IMG/VR virus record: IMGVR_UViG_2778261571_000003
DNA from: a virus
Taxonomy: Duplodnaviria > Heunggongvirae > Uroviricota > Caudoviricetes
Length of the DNA: 11,656 nt
Direction: 5' to 3' (one strand)
Part shown: piece by piece, positions 1,168 through 11,656 of the stretch
Position numbering within the stretch: the stretch's first letter is position 1
Layout: every line of letters begins with the position of its first letter
Translations under genes and position numbers: made by a program
Notes under the pieces: model-generated
Seen by the model: the letters and a program-made list of their open reading frames with translations, nothing else
The model's database searches: none
Told to the model about the DNA's origin: nothing

Positions 1168-1899
1168 TTACATCATGTCTTTTTCTAAAAAAAATCTTGA
1201 TGAATATTGATGGGGAGGAACACCAAAATACCTTCTGAAAACACTTACAAAATATGACGTGTTTTCATAACCGCATATCTCAGCAACTTTTCCAACAGAA
1301 TATAAATTGTAGCTTAATAACCTTTCCGCCATCACCATTCGCTCTTCAAGAATTAACTTACTAAATGATAAGCCTTCGTGCTTTAATTTTCTTTTTAACA
1401 GACTTTCACTCAGATACAGTCTTGAAGATATATCACAAAGTCTCCATGCTGCAGATATATCCGTGTGAATAATAGCCTTAACTTTACTTCCTAAACTATT
1501 AAGACATCCAAATAAAAAACTTTGCACTATTTTCTCTGAAGATAAGATAGCAAGACATGCAAGTGATATTTGATTTCTAACAAAATCCACAGTTCTGCCA
1601 TCACAATTCAAGCATGCAATCAAGTTCTTTAACAATGAAAAATCTTCACATTCCACCATCAAGTATGCCGGATAAAACCTTCTTACAGAAAAAGGTGAGA
1701 GTGTGTTGCTTTTAAAGAAATCATTAACTGTTTTCTCTTCAACATCTACGATCATTACATGATCTATATTTGATGAAAAAAAATCTTTTAAATTGTAATC
1801 AATGAGAACAGCACTTCCTTTTTTAAACAAAATATCTTCTTTACCAATTCGGACATCAAACGAGTTCAACACCAAAATGATAGAACATATGTATGGCAT
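1168..1899 (-). CDS. AraC-family transcriptional regulator (AppY/EnvY-like, AT-rich)
   Basis: C-terminal AraC-type HTH signature (..VGKVAEICGYENTSYFVSVFRRYFGVPPHQY..). Gene is visibly AT-rich compared with the phage backbone. The track ORF begins at GTG 1908; I prefer ATG 1899 (MPYICSI...) because AGGTGG sits 5-6 nt upstream. Stop TAA at 1170..1168. Confidence 0.85.
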   Translation of the reverse strand: MPYICSIILVLNSFDVRIGKEDILFKKGSAVLIDYNLKDFFSSNIDHVMIVDVEEKTVNDFFKSNTLSPFSVRRFYPAYLMVECEDFSLLKNLIACLNCDGRTVDFVRNQISLACLAILSSEKIVQSFLFGCLNSLGSKVKAIIHTDISAAWRLCDISSRLYLSESLLKRKLKHEGLSFSKLILEERMVMAERLLSYNLYSVGKVAEICGYENTSYFVSVFRRYFGVPPHQYSSRFFLEKDMM

Positions 1900-2250
1900 A
1901 TTATCCACCTGATATCATTGGGGTTACACCAGGTAAGTATAGGTGGAAAATCAATATTCGCCAGTTCAACAATAAGGAAAATTTCATTGCATCACAAGTA
2001 TAAAATTATGTATTTAACTCACAAAGACAAATTATTAAACCAATCCGTTATATTATATATAGCTGCGTGGAATCATAATATTATATATTTTGACTGGCAT
2101 GTTTACCAACTTTAAGTTGCATCTCAATTGTTTCTTCAGCGTAAACAGAGTTTTTATACAAACTGACACTCTGGGTATCATAGTGTAGTTTTTACGATTG
2201 TAAATATCCTGCATGCAGGAACTCATCCTTTTGGATGATATCGCATACAA

Positions 2251-3210
2251 TTAATTTACCATCAGTCTTAGAGCCAGTTCGTCCGGATAGGGATCGAAGT
2301 AATTCTGTGTAAGCAAGTAATCATTAGGATACTCACCCAGATAATGCTTCAGCAGAGTCAACGGCGCAAGAAGAGGTAATGTGCCAGAACGATAGTTAAG
2401 TATAACCTCGCTCAACTCTTTACGCTGGCGTGTACTTAAGTAGTTACTAAAATACCCCTGTATATGCATCAGCACATTCGTGTGATTTTTACGTGATGCA
2501 GGTTTTCTGAGAATCGCCATCAGCTTATCACGATACACCTCAAAGTATGATTCAAGGTCCGCCCACTCGTGTATTGCAGCCACAAATGGTCCCATATCTT
2601 TATAGCCTGCCTGACTATGCGCCAACAACTGAAGCTTATAACGACTATGAAAAGCTAATAACTCTCTTCTTGATAATTTCTCCTTGTAAAGGTGATTGAG
2701 CTCATGCAAAGCAAAAACTCTTTCAACAAAATTCTCACGAAGCACTGGATCATGTAATCGCCCATCCTCTTCAACCGGTAGCCAGGAAAACTTTTCCATC
2801 AAAGTGCTCGTAAATAGTCCCACTCCATCTTTACGACCTCGATTACCATTTTCATCATAGACACGCACGCGCTCCATGCCACAGCTGGGAGATTTAGCAC
2901 AAACCACAAACCCCGATACATCCTTTAATTTGTCCATATAAGAACGACTAAACTCTGTCATTCTCTCTGTCACATCCTCATTCTGGTCGTGGCTGAAACA
3001 CATCCGTATATTTCCTTGCGTCGAGCGCACAAGACGTAGAGCAGGACGCGGAACTGGCAGCCCTATAGCCATTTCCGGACATACTGGTCTGAATGTTACC
3101 CATTCCACTAATTTGTCCATTAAAAAGTCAGCTCTTTTGTGACCACCATCAAAACGAACAGCAGAACCGGCCAAACAACCGCTGATTCCAATCACAGGTT
3201 TTTTTATCAT
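2251..3210 (-). CDS. DUF523/DUF1722 two-domain protein (YbgA/TudS-like family)
   Basis: 319-aa ORF. N-terminal region (PVIGISGCLAGSAVRFDGG...VCPEMAIGLPVPR...) resembles the Cys-containing DUF523 core; the C-terminal half resembles DUF1722. RBS GGGGGAG before ATG at 3210. Family assignment is from memory, not a search. Confidence 0.7.
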   Translation of the reverse strand: MIKKPVIGISGCLAGSAVRFDGGHKRADFLMDKLVEWVTFRPVCPEMAIGLPVPRPALRLVRSTQGNIRMCFSHDQNEDVTERMTEFSRSYMDKLKDVSGFVVCAKSPSCGMERVRVYDENGNRGRKDGVGLFTSTLMEKFSWLPVEEDGRLHDPVLRENFVERVFALHELNHLYKEKLSRRELLAFHSRYKLQLLAHSQAGYKDMGPFVAAIHEWADLESYFEVYRDKLMAILRKPASRKNHTNVLMHIQGYFSNYLSTRQRKELSEVILNYRSGTLPLLAPLTLLKHYLGEYPNDYLLTQNYFDPYPDELALRLMVN

Positions 3211-3402
3211 ATTCTCCCCCTTGACTAATTCATTAACACATAAACTGTGTAGTGCACGGAATAAATTGCCTTTCTGGCGTCATCACTGACAATTTTTCTG
3301 TTATGGACTATTCCTAATATAGTATGAAAGTTCTTTAAGTGATCGGTCGTAATCATCTATCTTTCATACTTACTCTCAACTATCAAAAGTACAGGATTTA
3401 TT

Positions 3403-3927
3403 ATGAAGTTATGGCCTGTGTTGACTGGCATTGCACTCTCTTTCACTCTTATAGCATGTAAGGCCCCGACACCACCTAAAGGTGTGCAGCCGATTACAAA
3501 TTTTGACGCCAACCGCTACCTCGGAAAATGGTATGAAATAGCTCGCCTCGAGAACCGGTTCGAACGTGGTCTGGAACAGGTCAGCGCTACTTATGGAAAA
3601 CGGAACGACGGAGGGATTCGTGTACTTAACCGTGGATACGATCCAACGAAAAATAAATGGAGCGAGAGCGAAGGTAAAGCATACTTTACTGGAGATACTA
3701 AAACTGCAGCATTGAAGGTTTCGTTTTTTGGCCCCTTCTATGGTGGCTATAATGTAATCAAACTGGATGATGAGTATAAGTATGCTCTTGTCAGTGGTCC
3801 GAACAGAGAATACCTATGGATTCTGGCAAGGACCCCAACTATTCCAGATAAAGTAAAAGCAGACTATGTGCGAACCGCTCAAAAGTTGGGATTCAATGTC
3901 AATGAATTATTATGGGTTAAACAATAA
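3403..3927 (+). CDS. blc: Outer-membrane lipoprotein Blc (bacterial lipocalin) homologue
   Basis: 174-aa ORF with signal peptide and lipobox (..FTLIAC|KAPTPP). Lipocalin signature recalled from E. coli Blc: NFDANRYLGKWYEIARLENRFERG, GKAYFTG, LKVSFFGPFYGGYNVI, YLWILARTP. Only gene of the operon region on the plus strand; clearly diverged from the E. coli chromosomal Blc as I recall it. Confidence 0.88.
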   Translation: MKLWPVLTGIALSFTLIACKAPTPPKGVQPITNFDANRYLGKWYEIARLENRFERGLEQVSATYGKRNDGGIRVLNRGYDPTKNKWSESEGKAYFTGDTKTAALKVSFFGPFYGGYNVIKLDDEYKYALVSGPNREYLWILARTPTIPDKVKADYVRTAQKLGFNVNELLWVKQ

Positions 3928-4082: not shown

Positions 4083-4460
4083 TTATTTCGAACAATCAGC
4101 ATCCATCTCCAATCGGAGATCCAACACCATCAGCATACCCTCCACTACGCCCTCAGCTTTCTGAAGCATCCTGCCAACCCAACAATCAGATCGCCCATGC
4201 TTACGTGCAAGCGCCATAAAAGTCATGCCGCCGACATAATAGTCCACCAATAAATCATGCAAATCGCTGTTGTTCTTTTTCAGACGGGCCATGCACCCGC
4301 AAATGATCATCGCGTCATCGTCACAACATTGTGGGCGAGATTTTACTTTTGAAGGAATTAATCCCTTAAAACCGGCGGCAATGGACGACCAGGTCACATC
4401 TTCATGATTATTAGCCGCCCACGCTCCCCAACGCTCAAGAACCATCTGAATATCACGCAT
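4083..4460 (-). CDS. Q: Late-gene antiterminator Q (phage-82 / DLP12 QuuD type)
   Basis: Translation [75 protein letters not shown]... matches what I recall of DLP12 QuuD, including the Cys-rich segment. Track ORF starts at TTG 4475; ATG 4460 (MRDIQ...) preferred. Stop TAA 4085..4083. Confidence 0.85.
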
Positions 4461-4545
4461 CAACTTACTCCACAAAACTCAGACCAGAACGCCAATTACA
4501 AGCAAAAATCAACAAAACAGTATTAGTTGATTGTTATCTCTGACT

Positions 4546-5950: not shown

Positions 5951-6156
5951 GCTTCACCTCCGCAGAGATCAAACGCTGGATGCAAAATATCGCAGGTGCA
6001 TTTCTGCATCTGTGAATGGAGAAGAGAGGTTGGATTGTATGTGCGCATAAACGTCCCCGTTTAGCGCAGAAGTCACCGGAGTTGTTCAGGCTCCGATTAC
6101 TTAATTATGGCAAGTTGATTATCGCAAATCAAAGGTTTTAATTGTGCTTTATTCTT

Positions 6157-6940: not shown

Positions 6941-6969
6941 GAAATAAAAAACCCAGCGCAAACTGGGTT
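6941..6969 (-). terminator. Rho-independent terminator after the secreted-protein gene (tR2-like position)
   Basis: Minus-strand RNA: AACCCAG-UUUGCG-CUGGGUU (stem 6950-6956 / 6963-6969) followed by UUUUUUAUUU. Lies immediately after the stop of the 6987..7481 gene. Confidence 0.55.
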
Positions 6970-6986
6970 CATATGAAATTTTTTTG

Positions 6987-7481
6987 TCATTTCCAATTGC
7001 AAGACTGTGAAATTTTTTCCACAACCTTATCAATCTCAGACAAGTCAAACTCAACTACTTGCATAGTTGATCCATAAGGTTCAAACCCAAAAATAGCTTT
7101 TTTATGCTTAGCCAAGGTCTTTATAAATTGTATTGGTTGTGGAGCAAATGCAGAATCACCGCCTTCCCCACCTCCCCAAACACTCTTGACCGGCTTTCCG
7201 CCATCTAACCGCACTGTAATTCTTGGGTTGTCCGAACCCATATAATCATTGAATGATAAATAGGCATCTGTTTTGTTATCACTACAACGCAACACCAGTG
7301 AAGTTGCACGATCAGTACCTGCTTTGTTATATGAATCTGGTGATAAATTAAGAGCCACAAAGTCAGTCTGGTCAGTCATTTTATTTATCTCAGACTTTGT
7401 TATCCACGGCCCTAACTTCTCTACACCAGCATTTGCTGTAAACGAGGCACTTATAACAAAGGCTAAAATAAATTTTCTCAT
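6987..7481 (-). CDS. Secreted/periplasmic protein of unknown function (cargo gene)
   Basis: 164-aa ORF with a classical signal peptide (MRKFILAFVISASFTANA|GVEK...). Strong RBS AAGGAG 8 nt before ATG 7481. AT-rich relative to neighbours. No family recognised; no counterpart at this position in lambda. Confidence 0.7.
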   Translation of the reverse strand: MRKFILAFVISASFTANAGVEKLGPWITKSEINKMTDQTDFVALNLSPDSYNKAGTDRATSLVLRCSDNKTDAYLSFNDYMGSDNPRITVRLDGGKPVKSVWGGGEGGDSAFAPQPIQFIKTLAKHKKAIFGFEPYGSTMQVVEFDLSEIDKVVEKISQSCNWK

Positions 7482-7627: not shown

Positions 7628-7801
7628 TTAAACAAACGTTCGCCAGACCTTACCATCAATGACCAGGATTCCTGCCCGCGTCATTTTTGCCGCAGCCTTA
7701 TTTATGCTGGTTAATGTCACACCTGTTGTCGCAGCAACGTCCGGCGCACAGAAGCTCTTGTGCGTCTCCAGATAATGAATAATTGCCTCTTTGCCCGTCA
7801 T
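7628..7801 (-). CDS. ren: Ren-like protein, truncated (57 aa; lambda Ren is longer)
   Basis: Not in the ORF track. Hand translation from ATG 7801: MTGKEAIIHYLETHKSFCAPDVAATTGVTLTSINKAAAKMTRAGILVIDGKVWRTFV*, which matches the recalled N-terminal half of lambda Ren up to ..KVWRT and then stops (TAA 7630..7628). ATG overlaps the P stop (ATGA). Confidence 0.6.
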   Translation of the reverse strand: MTGKEAIIHYLETHKSFCAPDVAATTGVTLTSINKAAAKMTRAGILVIDGKVWRTFV

Positions 7802-9511: not shown

Positions 9512-10051
9512 TCATATTGCCCCCAGCATGGTGGTGACCATCGCCATCAGTGGACCAGCCAAATCCGGGTCCACACGAAACATCGACACAATGCCTTCAC
9601 TCATCTCCTTCAGTTTCTGGTGGCGTGGTGCGTTGAGAATGACAGCCTGTTTTGCCTCACTGAGTTCCTTTTCCATTTCAGCCAGCCGAGCCATGAAGCT
9701 ATCCTGCTCAACCAGGTGGCCGCGATATTCCAGCGGTAGTACCGCCAGAATTGCCGGGGTCAATTCACGCACGTTATTTCGGTATTTTTCAGAATCGAAT
9801 TTGTTATCGAGGAAGCGGAACAGCTTCTGGCGTGCACGGCTGACATCATCAGGGAAATCGATGGTGCCGCCGCCCTGCTCCCGATACTCATTCACAATGA
9901 GTGCGGCAACGACATCCTGATTATCTACAGCCGACCAGGCGCGGACGGCATCACGGATTTTTTCGTGGCCTGGAGCTTGTTTTGTTTGAGAACGATTTAT
10001 CACCGCAGTCGGGCTAAATCCGCTAGTCTGTTGGTATGTAAGTGGTTGCAT
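9512..10051 (-). CDS. YdaT-family protein (CII-position regulator; annotated 'toxin YdaT' in Rac-like prophages)
   Basis: 179-aa ORF in the cII position between the Cro-like gene and O. Motifs IVNEYREQGGG and ELTPAILAVLPLEYRGHL resemble those I recall from Rac YdaT. RBS AAGGAG 7 nt before ATG 10051. Confidence 0.65.
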   Translation of the reverse strand: MQPLTYQQTSGFSPTAVINRSQTKQAPGHEKIRDAVRAWSAVDNQDVVAALIVNEYREQGGGTIDFPDDVSRARQKLFRFLDNKFDSEKYRNNVRELTPAILAVLPLEYRGHLVEQDSFMARLAEMEKELSEAKQAVILNAPRHQKLKEMSEGIVSMFRVDPDLAGPLMAMVTTMLGAI

Positions 10052-10096
10052 AATTGACTCCTTTAGTTTGAATTGACTGTTAAGTTGATTGCTTAT

Positions 10097-10109
10097 TGTT
10101 AAAGAGCGT
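10097..10109 (-). promoter_or_regulatory. boxA-like element (candidate nutR) between the Cro-like gene and the YdaT-like gene
   Basis: Minus-strand sequence CGCTCTTTAACAA matches the boxA consensus recalled from lambda nut sites and rrn antiterminators (CGCTCTTA / TGCTCTTTAACAA). It sits just downstream of the Cro-like stop, where lambda has nutR. No clear boxB hairpin was found by eye. Confidence 0.45.
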
Positions 10110-10120
10110 GAAATGGAAAT

Positions 10121-10351
10121 TTAAGCTGCGTTCTTTTCAGTGTGTGGAAACAACTTCGGAAGATCCGGGCGAATCTGGTATGCCTTCACTACTCCACCAG
10201 TAGCCGTAACAATGCTGCCGACATGTTCAGGGGATACCTTTGCTTTGTTGTGAAGCCACTTATAGACGGCCTGCTGTGAAACTTCGCAGGCAGCGCCTAG
10301 TTTCTTTTGTGAACCAACGATATTGATCGCTGTTTTGATGGCTGGGTTCAT
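10121..10351 (-). CDS. Cro-like HTH regulator (YdaS family)
   Basis: 76-aa ORF divergent from the repressor gene. HTH-like segment (..GSQKKLGAACEVSQQAVYKWLHNK..) and overall similarity to Rac YdaS as recalled. RBS GGAGG before ATG 10351; stop TAA 10123..10121. Confidence 0.75.
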   Translation of the reverse strand: MNPAIKTAINIVGSQKKLGAACEVSQQAVYKWLHNKAKVSPEHVGSIVTATGGVVKAYQIRPDLPKLFPHTEKNAA

Positions 10352-10455
10352 AACAACCTCCGTGGTTAATTTGAATCAAGATTAAAACTATGGTTGTTTT
10401 TAGTCAACAACCATTTTCGTTTGATGAAATAAAACCTTGGTTGTACATTTGGACT
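10352..10455. promoter_or_regulatory. Divergent operator/promoter region between the Cro-like and cI genes
   Basis: Perfect 9-bp inverted repeat ATGGTTGTT-7bp-AACAACCAT at 10390-10414. Half-site GGTTGT/ACAACC recurs at 10353-10358, 10392-10397, 10407-10412 and 10439-10444. Candidate rightward promoter on the minus strand: -35 TTGACT (10402-10407) overlapping the palindrome, 17-bp spacer, -10 TAATCT (10379-10384). Candidate cI promoter: TTGATG (10421-10426), 17-bp spacer, TACATT (10444-10449), ending 6 nt before the cI ATG with no SD, suggesting a leaderless mRNA. Confidence 0.5.
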
Positions 10456-11145
10456 ATGAAAACAACACTCTCAGAAAGACTTAAAGAAGCCAGATTAGCG
10501 CGAGGCCTTACACAAAAGGCGCTTGGGGATTTGGTCGGGGTTAGCCAAGCAGCTATTCAGAAAATCGAAACAGGGAAAGCTAACCAAACAACTAAAATCG
10601 TGGAGATCGCGAACGCTTTGGGTGTGCGCGCAGAATGGTTATCTTCTGGCGTTGGAAATATGTCAGACAGTACAGTGCAACCAATACAAACAACTGTCAG
10701 CCATTCCAAATACTTTAAGATTGACGTTCTTGATATCGAAGTGAGTGCCGGGCCGGGAGTCATCAACCGTGAGTTTGTAGAAGTTCTACGTTCGGTTGAG
10801 TATTCGTTTGACGATGCTCGTCACATGTTCGATGGCAGGAAGGCGGAAAATATCCGTATCATTAACGTACGCGGTGACAGCATGTCAGGAACGATCGAAC
10901 CAGGTGATCTGCTGTTCGTTGATATCACTGTTAAATCTTTCGACGGTGATGGTATCTATGCGTTTCTGTACGACGACACAGCCCATGTAAAGCGCCTGCA
11001 AATGATGAAGGATAAACTGCTGGTTATCTCTGATAACAAGAGCTACTCACCGTGGGACCCAATCGAGAAAGACGAGATGAACCGGGTATTCATCTTCGGG
11101 AAAGTCATCGGGAGCATGCCGCAGACGTATAGGAAGCATGGATAA
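10456..11145 (+). CDS. cI: CI-type prophage repressor (XRE-family HTH + LexA-like S24 peptidase domain)
   Basis: From ATG 10456: MKTTLSERLKEARLARGLTQKALGDLVGVSQAAIQKIETGK.. (HTH), with a C-terminal autocleavage domain carrying the Ser/Lys dyad context (..VRGDSMSGTIEPGDLLFVD.. and ..AHVKRLQ..). Divergent from the Cro-like gene. The track start at 10390 is an extension that would begin inside the operator palindrome. Confidence 0.9.
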   Translation: MKTTLSERLKEARLARGLTQKALGDLVGVSQAAIQKIETGKANQTTKIVEIANALGVRAEWLSSGVGNMSDSTVQPIQTTVSHSKYFKIDVLDIEVSAGPGVINREFVEVLRSVEYSFDDARHMFDGRKAENIRIINVRGDSMSGTIEPGDLLFVDITVKSFDGDGIYAFLYDDTAHVKRLQMMKDKLLVISDNKSYSPWDPIEKDEMNRVFIFGKVIGSMPQTYRKHG

Positions 11146-11240: not shown

Positions 11241-11494
11241 ATGGAAGAACGTGGGAATTACCTAATAGCCCCCCTAGAAGTAATTGGTTCTGGCGGTTTT
11301 GGCCTTGTAGAAAAAATAAGGTTATATAACTCACAAAGAAAAATTTGTGGTCTATATGCCAGAAAAATTTTACGACCTGATGCAACAGATCCTGAACTCT
11401 TTACCAGATTTGAACGAGAAGTAAGATATCAAACTGAATGCCTGCATACTAATATTGTCCAAATATTCATATGCCACTTACAGAATGCTCAGCC
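11241..11494 (+). pseudogene. Hanks-type protein kinase gene, N-terminal ~84 codons only, interrupted by IS10
   Basis: MEERGNYLIAPLEVIGSGGFGLVEKIRLYNSQRKICGLYARKILRPDATDPELFTRFEREVRYQ... shows the glycine-rich loop G-S-G-G-F-G-L-V, a beta3 lysine (YARK) and an alphaC glutamate (FEREV). The ORF ends at a stop supplied by the first bases of IS10 (cTGAtg at 11496-11498). RBS AAAAGGA before ATG 11241. Confidence 0.7.
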
Positions 11495-11656
11495 CTGATG
11501 AATCCCCTAATGATTTTGGTAAAAATCATTAAGTTAAGGTGGATACACATCTTGTCATATGATCAAATGGTTTCGCGAAAAATCAATAATCAGACAACAA
11601 GATGTGCGAACTCGATATTTTACACGACTCTCTTTACCAATTCTGCCCCGAATTAC
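11495..11656 (+). mobile_element. IS10 (Tn10-type IS4-family element), outside end; continues beyond window end
   Basis: From 11495 the sequence CTGATGAATCCCCTAATGATTTTGGTAAAAATCATTAAGTTAAGGTGGATACACATCTTGTCATATGATCAAATGG... matches the IS10 outside end as I recall it, including the terminal repeat, the IHF-site region and the Dam GATC (11561-11564) in the transposase promoter region. The 9 bp just outside (TGCTCAGCC, 11486-11494) fit the IS10 target consensus NGCTNAGCN. Confidence 0.85.
11602..11656 (+). CDS. IS10 transposase, first 18 codons (continues beyond window)
   Basis: ATG at 11602 followed by MCELDILHDSLYQFCPEL, the recalled N-terminus of IS10/Tn10 transposase. Confidence 0.8.
   Translation, partial: MCELDILHDSLYQFCPEL

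Follow-up and report, generated by a model that had tools for sequence, protein, structure and literature searches.

Early antitermination in lambdoid phages is taught as a matter of either the N protein and its nut sites or a put RNA. What, then, is to be made of a spacer downstream of a cro-like gene in which a boxA motif is followed by three short repeats instead of a boxB hairpin? The spacer in question, 69 nt long, separates a cro-like gene from a gene of the YdaT family in a window of 11,656 nucleotides (the whole stretch of DNA that was analysed), which represents the early-right arm of a lambdoid E. coli prophage and is read on the minus strand. The first-pass annotation of this DNA had placed a boxA-like signal at the nutR position and suggested that the repeats might indicate a non-lambda type of antitermination signal or a protein-binding array. 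The comparisons described below point to the following reading, to which we would give an even chance: the spacer is the nutR-equivalent of an N-less lambdoid prophage related to phi80 and HK639, with a perfect boxA, a deleted boxB-like hairpin and a function that would depend on the Nus factors independently of N.

The cro-ydaT spacer and its setting

The principal features of the immunity region and the spacer are listed here in the order in which the early-right transcript reads them, beginning with the divergent repressor gene.

10390..11145, plus strand: cI-like repressor (HTH and S24 peptidase domains; Pfam), divergent from cro
10390-10414: operator-type palindrome, ATGGTTGTT-N7-AACAACCAT
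10352-10460: operators and PR
10121..10351, minus strand: cro-like gene, HTH protein of the YdaS family, 76 aa (Pfam YdaS_toxin, E 4e-17; P22_Cro weak; PHROG 'transcriptional repressor')
10121-10123, minus strand: stop codon of the cro-like gene, TAA
10096..10108, minus strand: boxA, CGCUCUUUAACAA on the PR transcript, fitting all 13 consensus positions and the functional consensus GYTCTTTAANA
10029..10106, minus strand: G-poor unstructured tract (C 19, G 6 in 78 nt), covering spacer and ydaT start
10083..10090, plus strand: repeat copy 3, AGTTGATT (RNA AAUCAACU), in the boxA-to-hairpin spacer; contains TTGATT, a YdaT operator half-site
10077..10083, minus strand: TTAACAG (RNA sense), site of a 12-nt deletion relative to the hairpin-bearing allele; the rare allele reads TTAACAG-ACTGA-TTAACAG (alignment, folds)
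10071..10078, plus strand: repeat copy 2, AATTGACT (RNA AGUCAAUU), holding the orphaned 3' arm (CAGUC) of a lost boxB-like hairpin
10063-10058, minus strand: ydaT SD, AAGGAG
10052..10059, plus strand: repeat copy 1, AATTGACT (RNA AGUCAAUU), made up of the last two SD bases and the 6-nt spacer before the ydaT ATG
9512..10051, minus strand: YdaT-family gene in the cII position, 179 aa (Pfam YdaT_toxin, E 7e-30; PHROG_163 CII-like, E 5e-67)

The motif on the minus-strand transcript, previously described as a close match to boxA, turns out to be exact. CGCTCTTTAACAA at 10096-10108 (minus strand) agrees with the boxA consensus at 13 of 13 positions and is the sole match without mismatch in the window, where arithmetic gives an expected chance count of ~3.5e-4 for the exact 13-mer per 2 x 11,656 positions. 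The window's GCTCTTTAACA, lying in an unstructured context, is likewise a perfect match to the functional consensus GYTCTTTAANA (for both consensus sequences, see PMC5725501). boxA starts 12 nt after the stop codon of the cro/YdaS-like gene, and from its last base it is 44 nt to the ydaT ATG (10051-10049) and ~32 nt to the SD. In phage IdasGreatGrand, which has an identical spacer in a complete genome of 47.9 kb, the same boxA is the only consensus boxA.

RNA structure prediction agrees with the earlier impression that no clear hairpin lies downstream of boxA: the 96-nt transcript forms no stable structure (-5 kcal/mol, z = +0.71, with 153 of 200 shuffles folding at least equally well), and folding reveals no boxB or put structure in the spacer. 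Since the window allele has no boxB hairpin, the element is not a lambda-type N site. Rfam searches of the window and seven related loci returned only matches to RNA-OUT, C4 and isrK, all of them outside the spacer. The tract at 10029-10106 has the highest C/G ratio (3.17) among the 78-nt windows of the minus-strand transcript, within the top 0.3%, with C making up only 24%, and it is a possible candidate for a Rho-loading (rut-like) region.

Among 5,426 complete E. coli genomes, 1,524 contain the cI-cro-spacer-ydaT module, which also occurs in the isolated phages IdasGreatGrand, PhiR5_1, PhiR26_1, PhiR34_1, PhiR47_2 and Turner. The YdaT protein of the window is a phi80-type 'CII-like activator' with a distant match to the structure of CP-933P YdaT (8bt1, E 3e-4). 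On the minus strand ydaT is followed by O, P, a remnant of ren and a TagO/VasI-like moron, downstream of which come ybcN/ninB, ninE, DUF1364, rusA, Q (4083-4475), cargo genes, a holin and a lysozyme. The cargo between Q and the lysis genes (1168-3927) comprises an AraC-type regulator, a YbgA-family protein and a lipocalin. ren has been cut down to a 57-aa ORF (7628-7801), the homologue of which carries a pseudogene annotation in L003, a near-identical prophage. At the other end of the window an IS10 end (11495-11656), with RNA-OUT at 11540-11609 (Rfam, 98.8 bits), interrupts a Ser/Thr kinase gene downstream of cI, of which the ORF at 11241-11498 is the truncated remainder; L003 has an intact 241-aa gene together with a gene for a PP2C phosphatase. 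Directly after the moron (6987-7481) lies a strong intrinsic terminator (6949-6970, minus strand; 9-bp stem and T-run) and, as this is located inside the PR operon and upstream of an internal promoter (see below), the right arm must either consist of two transcription units or require readthrough.

Relatives, alleles and the absence of N

The wider relationships of the spacer were followed in 45 prophages that have a homologous Cro and come from other species of Enterobacterales. In 16 of the 45 a boxA with 0-2 mismatches starts 6-23 nt after the cro stop codon, normally with a hairpin after it, and most of these boxA-bearing prophages also carry a boxA in the leftward leader as well as N homologues or arginine-rich ORFs. 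The window boxA occupies the homologous position, and because these prophages share boxA (and hairpin) there, mostly alongside a left boxA and N, this can be regarded as a genuine nutR position, as had been proposed. The closest Cro relatives (80-86% identity; L256, L257/8, L259 and L261/2, also L125/L100) have the order boxA, ~17 nt, hairpin, SD, next gene, the hairpin being GGCUGA-(AUUA/GGAA/GAAA/GUAA)-UCAGCC.

The window allele itself is found in 1468 of 5426 complete E. coli genomes (27%), and its hairpin-less spacer is also that of the plaque-forming phages PhiR5_1, PhiR26_1, PhiR34_1, PhiR47_2 and IdasGreatGrand. A rare allele of the same module (52 genomes, e.g. PEC403 and 2016C-3878) possesses a hairpin, GACUG-AUUAA-CAGUC, at the aligned position, with a stem that differs from that of the relatives by one compensatory pair (G-C to A-U). 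In the window allele a boxB stem-loop 3' of boxA is missing: the equivalent 21-nt segment folds at 0 kcal/mol, as against -5.7 to -12.4 kcal/mol in the rare allele and the relatives. What the window allele lacks is exactly ACTGATTAACAG, 12 nt of the rare allele bounded by two TTAACAG repeats. To judge from the alignment, this loss is a typical slippage deletion that took out the 5' arm and the loop of the boxB-like hairpin. The prophage in which the hairpin-bearing allele sits is itself N-less and has its left leader in common with the window lineage, which implies that the hairpin had been orphaned already by the time of its loss.

Is the lineage really without N? tblastn with ten N/Nun-type proteins (N of lambda, P22, 21, phi80 and 933W-type, Nun and four further N-like proteins) gave no credible N homologue in the window, in L001-L003, L264 or HK639, or in the complete IdasGreatGrand genome, nor did annotation and PHROGs (the latter applied to leftover small ORFs) reveal an N gene in L003, 4A7, IdasGreatGrand or the hairpin-allele prophage. 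An unannotated small N gene after PL was considered and rejected, the only ORF there being an in-frame upstream extension of kil of which only the Kil part matches a family. An N-like gene to the left of cI, the presence of which had been put forward as a check on the antitermination reading, was sought in complete relatives and not found, and the phage lineage appears to lack N, unless in a highly divergent form. The first-pass annotation had taken the joint absence of an N-like antiterminator and of boxA conservation among relatives as grounds for abandoning the signal; the antiterminator is indeed absent, but comparison with the nut sites of related prophages finds boxA conserved.

The left operon gives a similar picture, with no boxA (up to 3 mismatches, core conserved) detected in that of L003. 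In the relatives the cI operon is followed by a terminator, OL/PL, a ~200-nt structured leader and then kil-gam-bet-exo. Given that the prophage and viable phages of identical spacer have neither an N homologue nor a left boxA, the site is a nutR-derived one with boxA only.

The left leader deserves comment in its own right. The PL leader of the lineage (L003:12420-12570; also L264, L002:10310-10470 and L001) is a conserved structured RNA of ~150 nt, with no match in Rfam, in which base changes in one stem compensate each other (CUU-CGGG-AAG versus CUC-CGGG-GAG). It fills the slot where L256 and HK639 have a putL-like RNA; nothing convincingly similar to the HK022/HK639 put emerged when left leaders of the window lineage were considered, and the L003-type leader is a candidate for a new cis-acting antiterminator RNA. 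In other N-less relatives (L257:3121-4260, L259:1210-2094 and L125:5700-6050, leftward) the PL leader resembles that of phi80, contains a boxA of nutL type (CTGCTTTTTAACAA) as well as a 'core' hairpin, and is followed by ~700 nt of conserved, apparently non-coding sequence that stands in place of the N gene and has no Rfam match.

On the right, the 80 IMG/VR loci with YdaT at least 98% identical to that of the window show only two types of spacer, the window type and the 4A7 type. The latter (~60 of the 80 loci) is 30 nt long and without boxA, with a hairpin across the cro stop codon. The occurrence of two spacer types beside near-identical YdaT proteins indicates that boxA travels with cI/cro and not with ydaT. 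In the sister modules (4A7, HK639, phi80 and a Klebsiella phage) the cro stop codon is spanned by a GC hairpin of 5-6 bp, GCCGCC-UAAxx-GGCGGC (L002:7575-7595, L084:4985-5005, L210:4463-4480 and L086:3955-3975), its stems conserved and its loops variable; the hairpin occupies the place expected for nutR, which is not annotated in phi80.

Possible functions of the site

With the hairpin deleted and N missing, any function that remains to boxA must rest on host factors alone. The most likely account, judged from sequence comparison, is that the boxA-only site loads NusB/S10 without N and thereby brings about anti-Rho processivity or control of ydaT translation, a relic also being possible. Following derepression of PR, the nascent boxA RNA would be bound in vivo by host NusB-S10, and with the addition of NusA, NusG and SuhB the polymerase would come to carry a Nus complex formed independently of N, like those at suhB and at the leaders of rrn and CRISPR loci. 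The most probable effect of such a complex would be to shield the early-right transcript (ydaT-O-P-ren) from Rho-dependent termination starting on the G-poor spacer, and the same complex could also damp ydaT translation.

Single-stranded RNA with a consensus boxA is bound by NusB-S10 (Nodwell & Greenblatt 1993; PMC2800207; PMC3177189), and documented cases in which boxA functions independently of N include suhB, a gene for a ParE-like toxin and rrn reporter constructs (PMC5725501). Antitermination of Rho-dependent terminators by boxA is documented for rrn-derived constructs (PMC5725501) and, in N-independent form, for CRISPR arrays (Stringer 2020, as cited in PMC7862264). At suhB the Nus complex represses translation, with Rho termination, even when boxA and SD are 100 nt apart (PMC5725501), and because it represses there instead of antiterminating, the direction of any effect at the window boxA is uncertain. 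Anti-Rho processivity is favoured because a constitutive attenuator in front of the replication genes would be of no benefit to an N-less phage; an attenuator of the suhB type and a plain relic are nonetheless serious competitors.

Several observations weaken the need for such a function. Translated operons are largely protected from Rho anyway. 4A7-type phages have an identical YdaT and no boxA, hence boxA is dispensable for the ydaT operon, and an internal promoter at 6104-6132, upstream of nin/Q, may reduce the requirement for processive antitermination from PR. Nor is the perfection of boxA a signature of N-independence, since N-encoding relatives have a perfect boxA too; the notion that a perfect boxA implies an N-less phage was rejected, L231 and L217 both combining one with arginine-rich N-like ORFs.

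The boxA could instead be a relic, that is, the non-functional remainder of an N-dependent nutR from which first N and nutL and then boxB were lost, in a module that spread too recently to have decayed. The dominant allele is already without the hairpin and still viable, boxA is missing from sister phages whose ydaT-O-P genes are the same, and variation in the spacer is too low to reveal purifying selection: in ~30 sampled copies it is nearly invariant, which does not separate function from recent spread, and conservation was for this reason rejected as a sign of selection. We nevertheless consider a relic rather unlikely. Every transcript of a consensus boxA should be bound by NusB/S10, making complete neutrality improbable, and boxA persists with 0-1 mismatch in a number of N-less spacers of different kinds (L256, L257/8, L259, L261/2 and L125).

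What of the repeats? The three similar direct repeats reported earlier are present, AATTGACT being exact at 10052-10059 and 10071-10078 (plus strand) and AGTTGATT at 10083-10090 (plus strand) equalling it at 6 of 8 positions and differing at 2 of 8. Window-wide, 8-mers of the AATTGACT type with at most one mismatch are not enriched (10 matches against 14.9 expected). Three TTGAYT motifs on one strand within 40 nt are seen in 0.8% of whole-window shuffles and 0.45% of local dinucleotide shuffles, a test that was picked after the data had been seen. The repeats resemble half-sites of the YdaT operator: CP-933P YdaT binds TTGATT-N6-AATCAA at the ydaS/ydaT junction and Rac YdaT binds ATGATT-N6-AATCAA across the ydaT start (PMC9986795, PMC11879457), and Rac YdaT has also been reported to bind the region equivalent to racR-ydaS. 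In principle, therefore, TTGACT-N13-TTGACT-N6-TTGATT could be an array of low-affinity half-sites for a YdaT tetramer, regulating a PRE-like leftward promoter or ydaT itself. Such a DNA-level role is compatible with, and not exclusive of, an explanation at the RNA level.

We think an array of this kind unlikely, although there are parallels with CP-933P and Rac. The gene pair (a YdaS-like Cro and a YdaT-like CII analogue) and the junction are the same, TTGAYT occurs three times, the window YdaT has a similar recognition helix, the two inner repeats share the 6+6+6 spacing of the operator, the TTGAYT cluster is rare in shuffles and a perfect operator, at 6115-6132, is conserved in the phage group. 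The window copies are, however, direct and not inverted: there is no inverted TTGATT-N6-AATCAA at the spacer, the best overlapping match (10085-10102) having 3 mismatches. The identical YdaT in the 4A7 immunity context has no such sites at the junction, and the rare allele shifts the spacing by 12 bp and changes copy 1, which there reads AATCAATT. With regard to a lambda CII-type PRE site, in which direct repeats flank a weak -35, TTGACT-N6-TTGATT does occur as a direct repeat, but no promoter-like site was found on the plus strand of the spacer; the idea that the TTGACT repeats are -35 boxes was rejected on the same ground. Nor are they cI/Cro operators, which in this phage are unrelated palindromes of the GGTTGT/ACAACC type.

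Alignment with the closest relatives and the rare allele, in showing the 12-nt deletion of the boxB-like hairpin, gives the three copies separate origins at the RNA level: copy 2 contains what is left of a hairpin arm, copy 3 is the spacer between boxA and hairpin and copy 1 the SD-ATG spacer, the repeats being for the most part a residue of this history. The AAUCAA motif of copy 3 (RNA AAUCAAC) is at the same place in L256, L125 and L259. Of the original proposal, the boxA at the nutR position, the lack of a boxB hairpin in the window allele and the non-lambda character of the element are borne out; a role of the repeats as a dedicated signal or array is weakly supported.

The only perfect TTGATT-N6-AATCAA in the window is at 6115-6132, 4 kb from the boxA spacer, and the IdasGreatGrand genome likewise has a sole perfect box. 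The motif is kept in 4A7 and HK639 and has 1 mismatch in prophage L213, from which it is very probable that the phage group uses this operator. On the minus strand it supplies the -35 (TTGATT) and spacer of a sigma70-like promoter (6104-6132) with an extended -10 (TGc-CATAAT), pointing toward ybcN/nin and Q, with counterparts at L002:1142-1159, L084:62-79 and L213:10960-10977. The operator arms, the -10 and the downstream leader (CGGAGCCTGAACAACTCCGGTGACTTCTGCGC) are kept in 4A7, HK639 and an Enterobacter prophage, whereas the 6-nt spacer and the upstream sequence differ. The site has the appearance of an internal promoter for nin/Q that is gated by YdaT, the analogue of CII, and would be functionally comparable to the control of Q by CII/PaQ in lambda. 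A further site with 2 mismatches to the operator, GTGGTTAATTTGAATCAA (10362-10379), lies between PR and the cro start codon, and 4A7 has a comparable 2-mismatch site across its own cro start. Taken as a joint scheme, in which antitermination of the rrn/CRISPR type, adopted by a phage as a boxA-only, N-independent Nus complex, would serve the early-right operon, an undescribed structured leader the left operon and the YdaT-gated promoter nin/Q, the proposal is tentative.

Returning to boxA itself, a suhB-type attenuator would have the Nus complex repress ydaT initiation, leading to uncoupling and Rho termination, and so constitute a host-dependent tR1 that tunes YdaT, O and P. Lambda has its Rho-dependent terminator tR1 at this same position, and the tract here is G-poor and unstructured. 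The geometry fits as well, boxA being 44 nt from the ATG and ~32 nt from the SD where repression of suhB extends over a range of 2-100 nt, and the motif agrees with the screening rule of GYTCTTTAANA within 50 bp of a start (PMC5725501). Without an N to lift it, constitutive attenuation before the replication genes would nonetheless be harmful to lytic growth, no sign of a terminator emerged, and we regard this as improbable.

Finally, an HK022-type put RNA or other structured cis-acting antiterminator in the spacer can be dismissed: although Salmonella phage UPF_BP1 has an HK022 putR directly after a homologous cro, and HK639 and L256 have putL-like leaders, the 69-nt window spacer is without stable structure, which refutes the idea at the level of the fold, and has neither similarity to put nor a match in Rfam.

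Comparison with known systems and significance

With a lambda-type nutR the window site shares its place directly after cro on the PR transcript, its boxA sequence and its homology to the boxA+boxB sites of prophages with related Cro proteins; it differs in that the window allele is without boxB and the phage without an N homologue or a nutL boxA. By these comparisons the element is a descendant of a nut site, yet one that fails three of the four testable features of the lambda type (boxB, N and nutL). It resembles the boxA elements of rrn leaders, CRISPR-array leaders and the suhB 5' UTR as a lone, single-stranded consensus boxA with no phage factor, located less than 50 nt from a start codon, but in contrast to these it lies between two genes of a translated phage operon and has no boxC. 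In its sequence it conforms to the N-independent Nus boxA elements.

HK022 and HK639 are likewise lambdoid and N-less, with related cro and cII-analogue genes. HK639 reportedly carries a put RNA. Here, however, the spacer contains no put structure, and the left leader of the lineage is a different structured RNA. An HK022-type put is an RNA of ~70 nt with two stem-loops, and a true putR after a homologous cro is seen in L087; the relative L256 combines a putL-like leader with boxA and hairpin on the right. phi80 shares the YdaT-type cII, and its PL leader begins in a related way, but it also has N and an annotated nutL, of which the window lineage has neither, and a stop-codon hairpin on the right where the window lineage has a consensus boxA.

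Beyond the lambdoid phages, CGCTCTTTAACAAT occurs exactly in at least 120 viral contigs (IMG/VR L090-L209). Many copies lie tens of nt past strong promoters in leaders, or before tRNA genes, and are often extended (...AACAATCTGG); in one group a hairpin, AGCGCCCTAxxGGACGCTT, comes immediately before the motif, which is the rrn-like order boxB-boxA. The use of boxA by phages appears to be much broader than lambdoid nut sites.

A widespread family, present in 27% of complete E. coli genomes and including plaque-forming members, has neither N with nut sites nor put RNA on its right operon, only a consensus boxA. Alleles with and without the boxB-like hairpin, together with the boxA-less sister module, provide natural controls. 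Were the site a relic, the locus would record the stepwise decay of a nut site after the loss of N. If, on the other hand, boxA works through the host Nus factors alone, N-independent boxA regulation would reach beyond rRNA, CRISPR and suhB into the early operons of phages, and this would help to explain how the right arm is expressed in N-less phages such as HK639.
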